Made by a program: the position numbers and the translations under genes. The notes under the pieces were generated by a model. That model saw only the letters and a program-made list of their open reading frames with translations. It was not told the DNA's origin and ran no database searches. Shown piece by piece: positions 59,226 through 64,000 of a DNA stretch of 64,000 nucleotides. How positions within the stretch are numbered: position 1 is the first letter of the stretch; every line of letters starts with the position of its first letter. The stretch comes from an uncultured Bacteroidales bacterium (GTDB lineage Bacteria; Bacteroidota; Bacteroidia; Bacteroidales; VadinHA17): NCBI GenBank assembly GCA_963844935.1, contig CAWJQH010000005.1, positions 587,058 through 651,057 on the forward strand, given 5' to 3'.

Positions 59226-60350
59226 TCAGCTCCAGATTCCGGGTATCGTTGCACCGCAACCGCATTTTCCGTTTTTAAGCCTGTCTGACACTATCCGGTA
59301 GCCGCTTCTTTCGATCACCTTCTGCTTGCATGAGGGGCAGACGGTATCATCAATATCTGTCCCCGGTACATTACCTATATAAGTGTATTTAATGCCTTCT
59401 TCGTGTGCAATCGCTGCGGCAGAGTCAAGGATACCGGCAGGAGTGGGAGGCAGATGCTCGAGTTTGTACTGTGGCTGAAAGCGGCTGAAATGAACAGGTG
59501 TTTCCGTGAACCCGTTATCGGCAAGCCAGCGGCACATTACCCTTATCTCATCCGGCTTGTCAGTCCAGCCCGGGATTATCAGGTTGGTTATCTCAAGCCA
59601 TACACCCTCATCCCTGTATGTCTTCAGCGCATCAAGAACAGGCTGAAGCTTGCCACCGCTAAGCTTAAGGTAGGTATTATCGTTGAACGATTTGAGATCG
59701 ATATTGGCACCGTCAATATAGCGGCAGAGCTCTCTGAGAGGCTCCCTGTTGATGTAGCCGTTTGAATGCATGATGTTTTTTATCCCTGCGGTACGAGCCA
59801 GCTTTGATGTCTCATATACATATTCATAGAAAGTCACTGGCTCCGAATAGGTGTACGCAATGGACCTGCAATTACCTGAAATTGCATTTGCCACTACATC
59901 TTCCGGTGGCATGTCGAAATTTCTTGTCTTGTCCGGCGAGGTCTGTGAGATAGTCCAGTTCTGACAGTTGAGGCATGCAAAATTGCATCCGGCAGTAGCA
60001 ATAGAAAAAGCTGTTGACCCTGGAAGAAAATGATAGAGTGGTTTTTTCTCCACAGGATCAATATTAACTGCACATGGGTTACCATAGGCCATAGTGTACA
60101 GCTTTGACTTCCTGACAACCCTGTTGCGGCAATCACTTAACTCACCTTCTTTCGGATTACACTCATTGGGACAGATCCTGCAGATTACACCCCGGGCGCT
60201 GTCCTCCTGATACATTGCAAGCCTTTCCTTTGGCGCCGGCTTCATGCCCTGCAGGCTCAAAGGAGTAATGATACCGGCTGCCACAGCCAGTGAACCCTGC
60301 CTTGCGAATGTCCTCCGTGTGATCTTTCTTCCTCTGACTTCCATTGACAT
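59226..60350 (-). CDS. AmmeMemoRadiSam-system radical SAM enzyme (PflA-like) with an N-terminal twin-arginine-type signal
   Basis: [15 protein letters not shown] radical SAM cluster motif. An extra N-terminal Cys cluster CRICPNEC...C. N-terminus [26 protein letters not shown]. Confidence 0.8.
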
Positions 60351-60376
60351 GCGTTTATGGATTGGCGGATATAAAG

Positions 60377-62797: not shown

Positions 62798-62808
62798 CGC
62801 GTTATGTC

Positions 62809-64000
62809 TTATTCACCGAAGACATAGGCCTCATAGATGTAAATCTCGGTATCCTTATCTTTCCAGCCGTCCCAGCCTATGCCCGCCTTGTCGTGAGCGC
62901 AGTAGCCGAGGAACTCGGTGACACTCCACCCCCTTTCAGAAGCTACCTGGGGCAGGAGGGTACCCGACCTGATACCTTTCTTAAGATAGATGCCGTGCTT
63001 TCCGATCTTTATCTGGCTGATGTCAGTAATCCTGACCATCGGACCAAGGACCGATATTTCAAGGTGAATATCAGGGTATTCGGCTGAAGTAAGGGGAGAG
63101 AACCTGGGATCATCGAAAGCTGCTTCCAGGGCCATTGTCGCGATTACCTCAAAGAGAGGATCGGGGGAGGTGAACCTTCCGATGCAACCACGCAGATTAC
63201 CGTCAATTGTGACTGTTACAAATGCTCCCAGTGGTTCTTTCAGGCGGGGTGTAAGCTTTGCAGGATCGACGCTGCGGGGCTTTGTTCCCTTAAGTTTTGC
63301 GGAGATGGATTCGCGTGCAATACCCAGCAAAGTCTTCTTTTCATCTGCTGTCAGCGAGAACTCGTCCATCGGAGCCAGCTTATGTGATACAGGCGGCTTC
63401 TCATCCACGACGATGGCATTGTATCCGACTACCTGGTCCCTGTCACCGTGAGGTGAATCTCCTGAATTCCTGTATTCGATATTACGGAAGTTCAGGCCGC
63501 CATCCTCTTCAGTGAGGTACAGGAGCACAAGCGCTGCCGTCCACCCGCACATGGCAGTAGAGAGATTATCGATGCCTGAAGCCTCAACCTCCCTGACGGT
63601 CTTCAGGAAGACATCAGGATCGCCGGTCAGGATGGCATCGCTGGTGAGCTTGTCCGCCCTGACGGCTTCGCTGTATGAAGGATAATGAGAGAAATCGCTG
63701 CTTATTATGAACAGGTTGCGGTCATTGAACCACGGACTGAGCTCAGAGGCTACCAGGTCAAGCATGGTGGTATTGCGTGTGCCCAGTAAGACAGGCACGA
63801 CCATAGGAGTTTTACTGAAGTGAAACTGGATAAAAGGAAGCTGGACCTCGAGTGAGTGTTCCACCTTGTGAGCGTCATCCATTTCAATGAACCATTTGCT
63901 TTTGCTGACAAGTTCATCACCCAGGGCCCTGTTAACCGGTACTGTTCCAAGGGGTGTGACCATATTGCCTGATGTGAACACGGCGGCACCTTCAAAGGAA
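62809..64000 (-). CDS. Memo-like (system protein B) and AMMECR1 (system protein A) fusion protein, N-terminus beyond the window
   Basis: Memo motifs VEHSLEVQLPF and SSDFSHY, then AMMECR1 motifs GAFVTV...LRGCIG...DPRF. The frame stays open to nt 64000. Confidence 0.85.
   Translation of the reverse strand, partial: SFEGAAVFTSGNMVTPLGTVPVNRALGDELVSKSKWFIEMDDAHKVEHSLEVQLPFIQFHFSKTPMVVPVLLGTRNTTMLDLVASELSPWFNDRNLFIISSDFSHYPSYSEAVRADKLTSDAILTGDPDVFLKTVREVEASGIDNLSTAMCGWTAALVLLYLTEEDGGLNFRNIEYRNSGDSPHGDRDQVVGYNAIVVDEKPPVSHKLAPMDEFSLTADEKKTLLGIARESISAKLKGTKPRSVDPAKLTPRLKEPLGAFVTVTIDGNLRGCIGRFTSPDPLFEVIATMALEAAFDDPRFSPLTSAEYPDIHLEISVLGPMVRITDISQIKIGKHGIYLKKGIRSGTLLPQVASERGWSVTEFLGYCAHDKAGIGWDGWKDKDTEIYIYEAYVFGE

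Follow-up and report, generated by a model that had tools for sequence, protein, structure and literature searches.

Conservation of Memo and AMMECR1 extends from archaea to humans, and both have links to human disease. In bacteria, AmmeMemoRadiSam, which joins both with a radical SAM enzyme (rSAM), is widespread; the evidence on this system so far comes from phylogenetic profiles only. An earlier study predicted that the system modifies bases of RNA in the cytoplasm (PMC2034487). Other described proteins resemble single parts of the locus analyzed here. Glycyl-radical activases (PflA, TIGR02493; structure 3c8f) have a radical SAM core with a CX3CX2C motif. Spermidine and thermospermine synthases (PF01564; 1uir, 3o4f, 6bq2 and 2o06) have a fold that includes an N-terminal beta-hairpin region, and the fused MFS/spermidine synthases (NF037959) and PRK03612 (NF002956) combine this SpeE fold, in C-terminal position, with an MFS-like membrane region. 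Further, Fe-S redox enzymes with membrane electron input (HybA/HybB and NapG/NapH types) are exported as folded Fe-S proteins through Tat.

We analyzed a 64-kb stretch of DNA (the window) in which adjacent genes matched TIGR04335 (amrA), TIGR04336 (amrB) and TIGR04337 (amrS) above the curated cutoffs; these assignments, given in an earlier note on this DNA, proved correct by HMM scores. Memo and AMMECR1 are fused, as in the Segatella and Ideonella loci. In contrast to AmmeMemoRadiSam as described, the rSAM carries a Tat-type leader outside the family model, Memo-AMMECR1 has a signal peptide, and there is a fourth component, which is membrane-embedded and co-inherited.

Organization of the locus and the AmmeMemoRadiSam proteins

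All three AmmeMemoRadiSam components lie on one strand within 4.8 kb. The Memo-AMMECR1 fusion gene is followed by a gene for an 806-aa membrane protein and by the rSAM gene, with the following features.

62809..64000 (5' end past the window edge), minus strand: Memo-AMMECR1 fusion, amrB/amrA-type (TIGR04336, TIGR04335, PF01875, PF01871)
~63409 to 63999, minus strand: Memo part of the fusion gene
~62818 to 63333, minus strand: AMMECR1 part of the fusion gene
62798..62808, minus strand: 11-nt gap, Memo-AMMECR1 stop to membrane-gene start
60377-62797, minus strand: membrane protein, 806 aa
60351..60376, minus strand: 26-nt gap without a terminator-like site, membrane-gene stop to rSAM start
59226-60350, minus strand: rSAM enzyme, 374 aa (TIGR04337, PF04055)
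60246..60350, minus strand: N-terminal leader of the rSAM, aa 1-35, with a twin-arginine-type motif (TRRTFAR) ahead of a hydrophobic stretch
60159-60182, minus strand: further Cys motif of the rSAM, CRICPNEC (motif search)
59964-59987, minus strand: CX3CX2C motif of the rSAM, CNFACLNC, aa 122-129 (motif search)
59226..60245, minus strand: catalytic body of the rSAM, amrS type (TIGR04337, PF04055)

The coordinates confirmed that the trio shares a strand with gaps of 11 and 26 nt. The earlier note had described a three-gene array; the trio stands, but the array does not end at the rSAM gene. Tightly spaced genes continue on the same strand, with ligA 31 nt on, followed by a gene for a DUF6913 protein and dapA. 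In related loci, the gap between Memo-AMMECR1 and the membrane gene ranged from -4 to 11 nt, and ligA was spaced as tightly as the genes of the trio. Further, in all 83 clade loci the trio was embedded in one collinear housekeeping block with the order FolD-Ffh-ArgS / SiaC-like-MemoAmme-MEM-rSAM-LigA-DUF6913-(DapA)-SecA, where MEM is the membrane protein. Because the whole block is collinear and ligA is equally close, neither tight spacing, to which the earlier note had appealed as a sign of partnership, nor synteny within the clade is informative, and we dropped within-clade synteny as evidence of partnership.

Neither of the two gaps (11 and 26 nt) contained a promoter-like or terminator-like site in a scan of positions 55000-64000; a promoter and terminator of its own for the membrane gene had been proposed as a check. 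Note that the site counts in 55000-64000 did not exceed the shuffled expectation and that the tool does not model Bacteroidota promoters. Ten other ORFs of the window contained housekeeping genes only and no tat genes in a Pfam scan, a result that is uninformative either way for a stretch of 64 kb.

The Memo-AMMECR1 reading frame is open up to the window edge, and thus the protein lacks some 85-105 residues at its N-terminus. As a result of this truncation, the match of the Memo domain to TIGR04336 (135.3 bits; cutoff 26) covered profile positions 88-270 only; a full-length Memo orthologue (locus L171) scored 255 bits. The AMMECR1 domain scored 164.2 bits on TIGR04335 (cutoff 99). The motifs EHSLEVQLPF, SSDFSHY and LRGCIG, by which the fusion had originally been recognized, were all present, as were AMCGW and DDPRF; in the AMMECR1 part, LRGCIG (63178-63195) is the RGChG Cys motif and DDPRF (63100-63114) the DxRa motif. 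Full-length orthologues of the fusion were 494-509 aa long with a Sec-type signal peptide at the N-terminus.

The rSAM scored 331.4 bits on TIGR04337 (cutoff 220), and the nearest solved structure was that of PFL activase (3c8f, E 8e-10). Unlike PflA, the enzyme possesses extra N- and C-terminal Cys motifs and a Tat-type leader, scored 57.7 on TIGR02493 against a cutoff of 231.75, and has no glycyl-radical enzyme gene nearby. The leader, about 35-45 aa, lies outside the TIGR04337 model, whose match begins at residue 53. The twin-arginine-type motif noticed earlier was present (TRRTF, aa 11-15), whereas the window leader matched neither of the Tat HMMs (TIGR01409 and PF10518). Of six leaders tested, three, all of orthologous rSAMs, reached the TIGR01409 cutoff of 16.7 (L086, 16.8; L157, 16.7; L154, 32.0).

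The membrane protein and its spermidine-synthase-fold domain

The 806-aa protein could be divided into the following parts.

62504..62797, minus strand: N-terminal three-TM module, aa 1-98, with invariant H32, H74, H88 and H92 (alignment)
61880..62461, minus strand: first MFS-like six-helix half, aa 113-306, TM4-TM9 (AF2 helices; internal repeat)
61829..61879, minus strand: TM10, putative connecting helix from the membrane core to the soluble domain (hydropathy; loop charges)
60956..61828, minus strand: spermidine-synthase-fold domain, aa 324-614, predicted extracytoplasmic (PF01564, Foldseek, profile alignment)
60902..60955, minus strand: TM11, putative connecting helix leading back to the cytoplasmic side (hydropathy)
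60380..60901, minus strand: second MFS-like six-helix half, aa 633-806, TM12-TM17 (AF2, Foldseek, repeat)

The protein is one of a large family whose members are about 700-860 aa long, with 9,955 matches in an exhaustive profile search; the small, Bacteroidales-only family returned by a word-index protein search was a sensitivity artefact. The N-terminal module, in whose TM3 H74 and H88 show H-x13-H spacing, was found in relatives of about 805-857 aa and not in those of about 700-730 aa.

The two six-helix halves are homologous to each other (hhalign probability 98.4%, E 6e-14, 177 columns). The AF2 model had a pLDDT of 70 and a pTM of 0.72 for the whole protein and a pLDDT of 83.4 for the C-terminal half. 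When this half was compared with the PDB using Foldseek, the best 50 matches were all MFS transporters, with weak E values (0.05-0.35) and query TM-scores of 0.45-0.58. Further, the alignment revealed conserved buried charges in the transmembrane core (R142/E143, E152, E259 and D761). These results point to an MFS-like 6+6 transmembrane core, a putative transporter.

Across 208 members of the family, TM10 and TM11 were about 17 residues long, nearly uncharged and among the top three helices by hydrophobicity, with mean Kyte-Doolittle values of 2.40 and 2.64, respectively. The K+R counts of the loops alternated cleanly in 205 family members, although loops L9 and L11 are cytoplasmic under both possible topologies and the charge pattern alone cannot separate them. 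The topology is based on our own positive-inside and hydropathy counts on fixed helices of the AF2 model, not on a dedicated predictor. We infer that two hydrophobic helices form a hairpin in place of the central loop of the MFS fold and would hold the SpeE-fold domain on the periplasmic side.

The soluble domain matched PF01564 over residues 381-498 (33.8 bits; cutoff 22.9; 122 of 186 profile positions), and its best 50 Foldseek matches were all aminopropyltransferases (E ~1e-8, target TM-score 0.57-0.68). The fold shared with the spermidine and thermospermine synthases includes the N-terminal beta-hairpin region, and the alignment extends to the acidic residue for ribose binding, the Asp for adenine binding and the region of the EE..H motif. 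In a profile alignment with 1uir and 6bq2, E420/D422 (YLEHDP) and D447 (KSDP) aligned with VDID and DDA of 1uir; these are adenosyl-binding positions, the first being the acidic one after beta2 and the second that of the adenine-binding Asp, and both are invariant or nearly so across the family. In contrast, the catalytic DxxDP (DLTDP in 1uir) is replaced with QLIPPP in the window protein, so that both Asp residues are absent (Q.LIPP throughout the window clade; N.P(E/x)P in relatives), and the Gly loop is degenerate (ISGGL, in ISGGLMK, versus GGG(D/E)G). The equivalog level was missed by far (TIGR00417, 25.6 versus 249.55; PRK00811, 30.7 versus 260). Thus, of the spermidine-synthase-like domain that had been proposed, the fold was found and the catalytic Asp pair was not; the term is true of the fold only. 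The domain probably keeps the residues that bind the adenosyl moiety of SAM or dcSAM without the Asp pair for aminopropyl transfer. Residues not found in SpeE, namely EE-x2-H-x4-Q, NR-YYT and Y/N/F positions, were invariant across phyla. The domain further differs from the synthases in being predicted periplasmic and embedded in a transporter-like protein.

Relatives of the window protein matched both NF037959 and PRK03612, and some carry the NCBI name 'fused MFS/spermidine synthase'. On NF037959 (cutoff 40), P0210 scored 68.1 bits and P0230 40.0, and the other relatives tested fell below; the window protein had no match at E <= 0.01 and scored 35.7 bits on PRK03612 against a cutoff of 472. 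Unlike in these families, the SpeE fold of the window protein is located between two homologous six-helix halves rather than at the C-terminus, and a three-helix His-rich module precedes the core. Names and searchable papers made no mention of a link between AmmeMemoRadiSam and fused MFS/spermidine synthases; Burroughs et al. 2019 may already list it. Literature searches on AMMECR1 with spermidine synthase, isoprenoid or radical SAM, and on Tat with radical SAM, returned nothing relevant.

Linkage and export signals in distant genomes

Distant relatives of the membrane protein (about 25-30% identity) were detected in Bacteroidota, KSB1, Syntrophales and high-GC lineages; the metagenome scan had alignment A3 as query. 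We examined 39 distant loci flanked by 3 kb or more on each side and scored partners within 5 kb. The counts are based on tblastn, as ORF clustering missed genes in high-GC loci because of antisense ORFs. The rSAM gene was close to the membrane gene in 35 of the 39 loci and Memo plus AMMECR1 in 30, with both partners in 27. Adjacency to the rSAM was thus more frequent than adjacency to Memo-AMMECR1, which was not nearby in nine loci; seven fully flanked loci had the arrangement MEM>rSAM> without it, and a single locus (L141) lacked both partners. Sampled distant partners scored above the curated cutoffs (288-380 bits on TIGR04337; TIGR04336 and TIGR04335 as well).

The genes occurred in at least six orders, with nine arrangements tallied, mainly MA>MEM>rSAM>, MA<MEM>rSAM>, MEM>MA<rSAM< and MEM>rSAM> (MA, Memo-AMMECR1), and the flanks were independent, for example in Bacteroidales GCA_016926235.1 and Syntrophales GCA_026416455.1. 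All-against-all clustering of the distant loci identified only three widely recurring families: the membrane protein, the rSAM and Memo-AMMECR1. The membrane-protein family is therefore encoded beside a TIGR04337 rSAM, and usually Memo-AMMECR1 too, in several phyla and gene orders. Synteny with the system was kept in the 83 clade loci and across phyla, and the partnership that the earlier note had surmised from position was borne out by the distant loci. Because distant relatives in unrelated flanks keep the linkage, the membrane gene is supported as a genuine partner of the AmmeMemoRadiSam genes.

An [RK]R-x-F-type pattern was matched by the leaders of 57 of 64 linked rSAMs; the remaining seven comprised three that were cut by contig ends, three with variant RR/KR motifs and one with a Sec-type signal. 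A hydrophobic signal peptide was found on 50 of 52 linked Memo-AMMECR1 proteins by our own threshold, and on the other two by eye; many carried a lipobox Cys. In the clade loci that covered these N-termini, rSAM leader and Memo-AMMECR1 signal were both present (80/80). In contrast, where the membrane gene was missing, the rSAM was leaderless, as seen in all five loci taken as controls (Segatella, Trichlorobacter, Ideonella, Sinorhizobium and Methylocystis). As an exception, Memo-AMMECR1 of Segatella has a signal peptide without a membrane gene or an rSAM leader. Judging from these leaders, the membrane partner is tied specifically to systems with a Tat-type-leader rSAM, as seen in the 64 linked rSAMs and the five control loci.

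The rSAM is accordingly predicted to be exported folded via Tat, and Memo-AMMECR1 is predicted to be exported via Sec, often as a lipoprotein. These signals, together with the transporter-like membrane neighbor, suggest that the enzyme set works outside the cytoplasm.

Possible roles of the membrane protein

For the membrane protein, the earlier note had offered three roles, those of target, anchor and substrate-delivery component. The explanation that we favor, and consider moderately probable, is an extracytoplasmic four-module variant of AmmeMemoRadiSam in which the membrane protein serves as a subunit for supply and docking of the exported rSAM. Supplying or anchoring this enzyme is its most likely role, and delivery of SAM is our best guess. 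The transporter core would carry a small cationic metabolite, most plausibly SAM, over the inner membrane; the periplasmic SpeE-fold domain would keep the adenosyl moiety ready for the rSAM; and the rSAM and Memo-AMMECR1 would process a cell-envelope substrate, not cytoplasmic RNA. A predicted location in the periplasm or membrane narrows the possible substrates to envelope molecules, and for the exported subtype it speaks against RNA base modification, the earlier prediction (PMC2034487), which does not fit an exported variant.

The most speculative step concerns electrons. The His-rich N-terminal module of Bacteroidota might mediate transmembrane electron transfer, and in other lineages a small two-helix H-x13-H protein might take this role. 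Heme binding by either is a guess: matches to heme proteins were below threshold, both for the module (Ferric_reduct only, E 0.16) and for the small protein (Sdh_cyt, 24.1 versus 25.8 bits; cytochrome b561, E 0.018). Homology between the two was unsupported (hhalign probability 1%). In some loci, the neighbors included Tat-leader DUF362 proteins, a NapH-like polyferredoxin, cytochrome b or the small H-x13-H protein. Unlike in HybA/HybB- and NapG/NapH-type systems, such accessory genes accompany the present system in a minority of loci only; none was found beside the window trio (55000-64000). To our knowledge, a radical SAM enzyme in the periplasm would be without precedent, and neither SAM nor a low-potential reductant is known to be available there.

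In its fullest form, this reading would describe the first rSAM pathway outside the cytoplasm, in which a Tat-exported rSAM and a secreted Memo-AMMECR1 act on an envelope substrate with an MFS/SpeE-fold exporter or presenter of SAM and, in some lineages, a heme-type electron module. We regard this complete pathway as possible but doubtful. If true, the membrane protein would be a SAM exporter of a new kind and Memo and AMMECR1 would gain their first biochemical context, and a truly periplasmic rSAM would require a rethink of where radical SAM chemistry occurs and how SAM and low-potential electrons are supplied. The variant adds to AmmeMemoRadiSam a fourth, obligatory-looking component that combines a recognizable, predicted adenosyl ligand-binding fold with a transporter core. 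Membrane partner and export signals offer experimenters a concrete handle, and leaderless systems without the membrane gene and Tat-type systems with it provide comparative and genetic studies with a natural contrast.

Alternatively, the membrane protein may itself be the catalyst, a SAM- or dcSAM-dependent alkyl transferase (aminopropyl, aminocarboxypropyl or methyl) that acts on an envelope lipid, polyamine or glycan and makes or consumes the substrate of the rSAM and Memo-AMMECR1. We consider this rather improbable. The aminopropyltransferase fold would suit it, the invariant EE-x2-H-x4-Q, NR-YYT and Y/N/F positions could build a new active site, and in many relatives the second Asp position is still acidic (N.PEP or N.PDP). 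However, the first catalytic Asp is gone family-wide, the window clade has lost both, its Gly-rich loop is degenerate, and the supply problem remains, because a periplasmic transferase needs an exported SAM-type donor anyway.

The membrane protein could also be the target or a scaffold, its periplasmic domain being modified or radicalized by the rSAM or tethering the soluble enzymes. Glycyl-radical activases, to which the rSAM is closest, have proteins as their targets, the linkage of the rSAM with the membrane gene is the tightest of the set, and the N-terminal hairpin region of SpeE-fold domains is suited to oligomer contacts. However, family alignments revealed neither a glycyl-radical-type motif nor a conserved Cys/Gly loop in the domain, and a mere anchor would hardly account for a conserved 12-helix transporter-like core with conserved buried charges. 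As a protein substrate, AMMECR1 with its invariant Cys is the better candidate (PMC2034487), and we judge a target or scaffold role unlikely.

Slightly less likely still is a cytoplasmic system, in which the leaders are not export signals, TM10 and TM11 do not span the membrane, the SpeE-fold domain lies in a cytoplasmic central loop of the MFS core and the rSAM docks at the inner face. Such a system would avoid the supply of SAM and reductant outside the cell, and it accords with the failure of the window leader on the Tat HMMs and with loop charges that fit both topologies. Against it stand the length, lack of charge and hydrophobicity of TM10 and TM11 in the 208 members, the Sec or lipoprotein signals on Memo-AMMECR1 in effectively all linked loci, the several orthologous rSAM leaders that reach the TIGR01409 cutoff, in one case with 32 bits versus 16.7, and the finding that leaderless rSAMs occurred exactly where the membrane gene was absent (five control loci).

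Finally, that the membrane gene is an unrelated passenger of the housekeeping block is very improbable. In favor of a passenger, the whole clade neighborhood is conserved, including ligA, secA and argS, ligA is spaced as tightly as the trio, and in L069 an unrelated permease gene separates the membrane gene from the rSAM gene, but no other family recurs in the distant loci, and the linkage holds at about 25-30% identity in differing phyla, flanks and gene orders, a divergence and variety that also oppose a single, recently transferred island.

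The trio in the window and its collinear block

Three same-strand genes separated by only 11 and 26 nt had been described at the edge of the window, a description that proved correct, with curated cutoffs passed and motifs intact.

Features of the trio (59226 to beyond 64000)
To beyond 64000, minus strand: MA, the Memo-AMMECR1 fusion; frame open to the window edge, N-terminus missing
60377-62797, minus strand: MEM, a polytopic membrane protein of 806 aa, starting 11 nt after MA; PF01564 match
From 26 nt after MEM, minus strand: rSAM, the radical SAM enzyme, 374 aa; TIGR04337, 331.4 bits (cutoff 220)

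The MA of the window scored 135.3 on TIGR04336 (protein B; cutoff 26) and 164.2 on TIGR04335 (protein A; cutoff 99), and its Memo motifs are intact, as are LRGCIG and DDPRF of AMMECR1. The rSAM carries CNFACLNC at aa 122-129 and a leader of ~45 residues that lies outside the TIGR04337 model, whose match begins at residue 53. By every defining feature tested, the window locus is a member of AmmeMemoRadiSam. The sole family match of MEM was a weak one to PF01564 (33.8 bits, residues 381-498). The tight same-strand array runs on past rSAM: ligA begins after a further 31 nt, and a DUF6913 gene and dapA come next, the three occupying 55661-59194 with gaps of 31-48 nt.

A word-index search returned ~140 relatives of MEM, all of ~806 aa, at 35% identity or more, and of uncultured Bacteroidales origin, and a scan of species-representative genomes gave 253 loci. 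One collinear block, FolD-Ffh-ArgS / SiaC-like-MemoAmme-MEM-rSAM-LigA-DUF6913-(DapA)-SecA, was common to all 80 loci retrieved and to three metagenome loci. Within this clade, MA and MEM are -4 to 11 nt apart, MEM and rSAM ~26 nt, and rSAM and ligA 21-34 nt. Synteny and spacing at this level cannot show functional linkage, because the gene for an essential DNA ligase, ligA, is spaced just as closely as the trio genes; a MEM gene that is merely a coincidental neighbour would look the same here. The SiaC-like (PF09345) gene lies ~62 nt ahead of the trio in the clade, upstream of the window (5957-6415 in the related locus L003). Further, MEM diverges much faster than its neighbours: where its identity was 35-37%, that of rSAM was 62-67%, MA ~50%, LigA ~60% and SecA ~76%.

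Co-inheritance in distant relatives

The MEM family is large. Searched exhaustively with a profile, 1.84 billion representative proteins yielded 9,955 matches at E <= 1e-3, of which 3,137 reached E <= 1e-30, in two architectures, one of ~805-857 aa and the other of ~700-730 aa, which lacks the first ~120 residues. The relatives came from Bacteroidales (including Tenuifilaceae), candidate division KSB1 and Syntrophales, and matched the NCBIfam family 'fused MFS/spermidine synthase' and PRK03612. In five of these loci the partners were kept amid unrelated flanks.

Distant loci with unrelated flanks
L084: MA abuts MEM; rSAM is 6 kb off on the opposite strand
L086: trio flanked by unrelated genes
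L088: MA divergent; two rSAM paralogues after MEM
L089: only MEM-rSAM
L171 (Syntrophales): trio

Scanning metagenomes with a diverse alignment added 80 further loci, 29-47% identical to a KSB1 member. We counted partners with tblastn in the 39 loci that extended 3 kb or more to each side, taking a partner as present when it lay within 5 kb of MEM. The rSAM was present in 35 of the 39 and Memo + AMMECR1 in 30; both were found in 27 and neither in a single locus. Gene orders included MA>MEM>rSAM> (16 loci), MEM>rSAM> (7), MEM>MA<rSAM< (6) and MA<MEM>rSAM> (5), where > and < denote strand. The distant partners that were sampled passed the cutoffs of TIGR04337, TIGR04336 and TIGR04335. All-against-all clustering of the distant loci revealed no other widely recurring family, and the SiaC-like, ligA, DUF6913 and dapA neighbours of the window's clade were not conserved in any of them. 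Because the partners persist in distant loci with unrelated flanks and varied gene orders, MEM is a co-inherited component of the system and hardly a coincidental neighbour. The feature is real, and the interpretation of MEM as a true partner, put forward in the earlier note from the window alone, is supported.

The locus with neither partner, L141 (MEM at 6866-9172), was the only fully flanked one to lack both within 7 kb; it is surrounded by a LytTR-type two-component system, an HDOD protein and clpP/clpX. The partners may be encoded at some other site of that genome; alternatively, this member may represent a subfamily of different role. In L069 (8524-10920; OY970276.1, a 4.99-Mb Bacteroidales chromosome), a gene for a 798-aa FtsX/MacB-type permease on the opposite strand separates MEM and rSAM, so that these two genes need not be co-transcribed. 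The tandem TIGR04337-like rSAM paralogues of L088 (10580-12955) each have a Tat-type leader, and cytochrome bd oxidase genes lie just past its divergent MA gene.

Export signals and anatomy of the membrane protein

All full-length MA proteins of the window's clade begin with a Sec-type signal peptide, and all rSAM proteins have an [RK]R-x-F leader. The rSAM leader pattern was matched by 57 of 64 rSAM enzymes from distant loci; of the remaining seven, contig ends cut three, another three had RR or KR variants of the motif and the last had a Sec-type signal. A signal-peptide threshold based on our own hydrophobicity criterion was passed by 50 of 52 distant MA proteins, many with a lipobox Cys, and the other two had a signal peptide by eye. 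The curated Tat model TIGR01409 (cutoff 16.7) was reached by three of six rSAM leaders tested, with up to 32 bits; the leader of the window rSAM gave no match to it. Controls came from PLSDB plasmids or chromids: five AmmeMemoRadiSam loci with no MEM gene within 5-6 kb, from Segatella, Trichlorobacter, Ideonella, Sinorhizobium and Methylocystis, and the rSAM was leaderless in every one of them. Because MEM-linked rSAM proteins have leaders whereas those of the MEM-free controls are leaderless, MEM is associated, as judged from predicted leaders, with a Tat-type form of the system. An Fe-S enzyme whose folding has to take place in the cytoplasm is typical Tat cargo.

The human-gut Prevotellaceae locus L172 (Segatella hominis NZ_CP137560.1, 4408-6825) encodes a fused MA (amrB, 491 aa) that clearly carries an N-terminal signal peptide, MRKIVLVVLLTMCMMMEAK. 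The amrS product there is leaderless and short (295 aa), with no MFS/SpeE-like neighbour, and this rSAM might act on the MA precursor ahead of export.

The AF2 model of the window MEM (pLDDT 70, pTM 0.72) comprised 17 long helices and a central alpha/beta domain (aa 324-614). When the whole model was searched against the PDB with Foldseek, all of the top 50 hits were spermidine, thermospermine or polyamine aminopropyltransferases (E ~1e-8, TM-score on target 0.57-0.68). The label 'spermidine-synthase-like' of the earlier note thus holds for the fold alone: MEM falls short of the equivalog thresholds and has lost the catalytic motif, and it should therefore not be filed as a spermidine synthase (SpeE). 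In a profile alignment with Thermus SpeE (1uir), MEM kept the ribose-binding acidic residue E420 in YLEHDP, the adenine-binding D447 and the EE..H region, and the counterpart of the GGG(D/E)G loop is ISGGLMK. In place of the catalytic DLTDP motif, the window's clade has Q.LIPP and its relatives N.P(E/x)P. The domain is not a canonical aminopropyltransferase, and from the retained residues it probably still binds an adenosyl ligand. The less likely rival reading of MEM as itself an enzyme, a catalytic transferase, has the fold in its favour and the lost motif against it.

The SpeE-fold domain is flanked by two six-helix membrane regions, which hhalign identified as homologous repeats (probability 98.4%, E 6e-14). 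The C-terminal half, modelled on its own (pLDDT 83.4), returned MFS transporters in all of the top 50 hits, including VMAT2, PiPT, PepTSo, OCT1 and NorC, with weak scores (E 0.05-0.35, TM-score on query 0.45-0.58). MEM is related to 'fused MFS/spermidine synthase' (NF037959), yet the window protein misses that model, and the layout differs in that the SpeE-fold domain of MEM is inserted between two MFS halves. TM10 and TM11, two additional helices, link the six-helix halves with the soluble domain and, over 208 family members, rank among the top three segments in hydrophobicity (mean hydropathy 2.40 and 2.64; ~0.4 charged residues each). Further, K+R alternate cleanly over 205 members, with loops 1, 3, 5, 7, 9, 11, 13 and 15 and the C-terminus rich (1.3-3.8) and loops 4, 6, 8, 12, 14 and 16 poor (0-1.05). 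The SpeE-fold domain is predicted to be extracytoplasmic provided that TM10 and TM11 are membrane-spanning; the rival cytoplasmic topology, an unlikely one, would require that they are not. With the partner leaders, this would place all soluble modules in the periplasm. The core has conserved buried charges (R142/E143, E152, E259 and D761), and Bacteroidota members have an added N-terminal three-helix module with invariant H32, H74, H88 and H92, of which H74 and H88 are spaced H-x13-H inside one helix.

Proposed role and accessory genes

We consider it very probable that MEM is a genuine fourth component of an exported variant of the system. This predicted extracytoplasmic four-module variant is the finding added here, and it raises the interest of the locus above what had been stated. 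An exported rSAM would require SAM outside the cytoplasm, and delivery via MEM would be the simplest reading, with MEM as the supply and docking subunit. MEM would fit this need because it combines a transporter-like core with conserved buried charges, a predicted periplasmic adenosyl-binding domain and a linkage that, by the partner counts, is tighter to rSAM than to MA. MEM as a protein target or scaffold, close to the target or anchor suggested earlier, is an unlikely reading; a transporter-like core would not be expected of a simple anchor. SAM supply as the specific role is nevertheless a tentative proposal that may well be wrong, and the combined reading, a fourth component of the exported variant together with SAM supply, we regard as moderately probable.

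RNA base modification has been proposed for AMMECR1 systems (Balaji and Aravind; PMC2034487), whereas export would point to a substrate in the cell envelope. No link between the components was found in the searchable literature. Burroughs et al. reportedly extended Memo gene contexts in 2019, towards nucleotide-base and isoprenoid modification, and may already note the MEM partner.

Electrons might enter through the His-rich module, a small H-x13-H protein, Tat-leader DUF362 proteins or NapH-like proteins, an idea with weak support. The small protein, of ~88 aa with two transmembrane helices and an invariant H-x13-H pair, is encoded directly between MEM and rSAM in 19 high-GC metagenome loci (L115-L117, L122, L124, L126, L128, L129, L132-L139, L144, L155 and L156; e.g., 9152-9412 in L126). 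It had sub-threshold matches to Sdh_cyt (E 4e-5, 24.1 vs 25.8 bits) and cytochrome b561 (E 0.018), and is a possible candidate for a heme-b electron-input subunit; homology between it and the His-rich module was not detectable. DUF362 proteins with Tat-type leaders adjoin the system in ~14 loci, and a NapH-like Fer4_5 polyferredoxin and M48 peptidases each lie nearby in four (accessory-gene loci L147, L152, L157, L159, L160, L162-L164, L166-L168, L171, L093 and L150). The Syntrophales locus L171 additionally encodes a cytochrome b and a 4Fe-4S protein in the vicinity.
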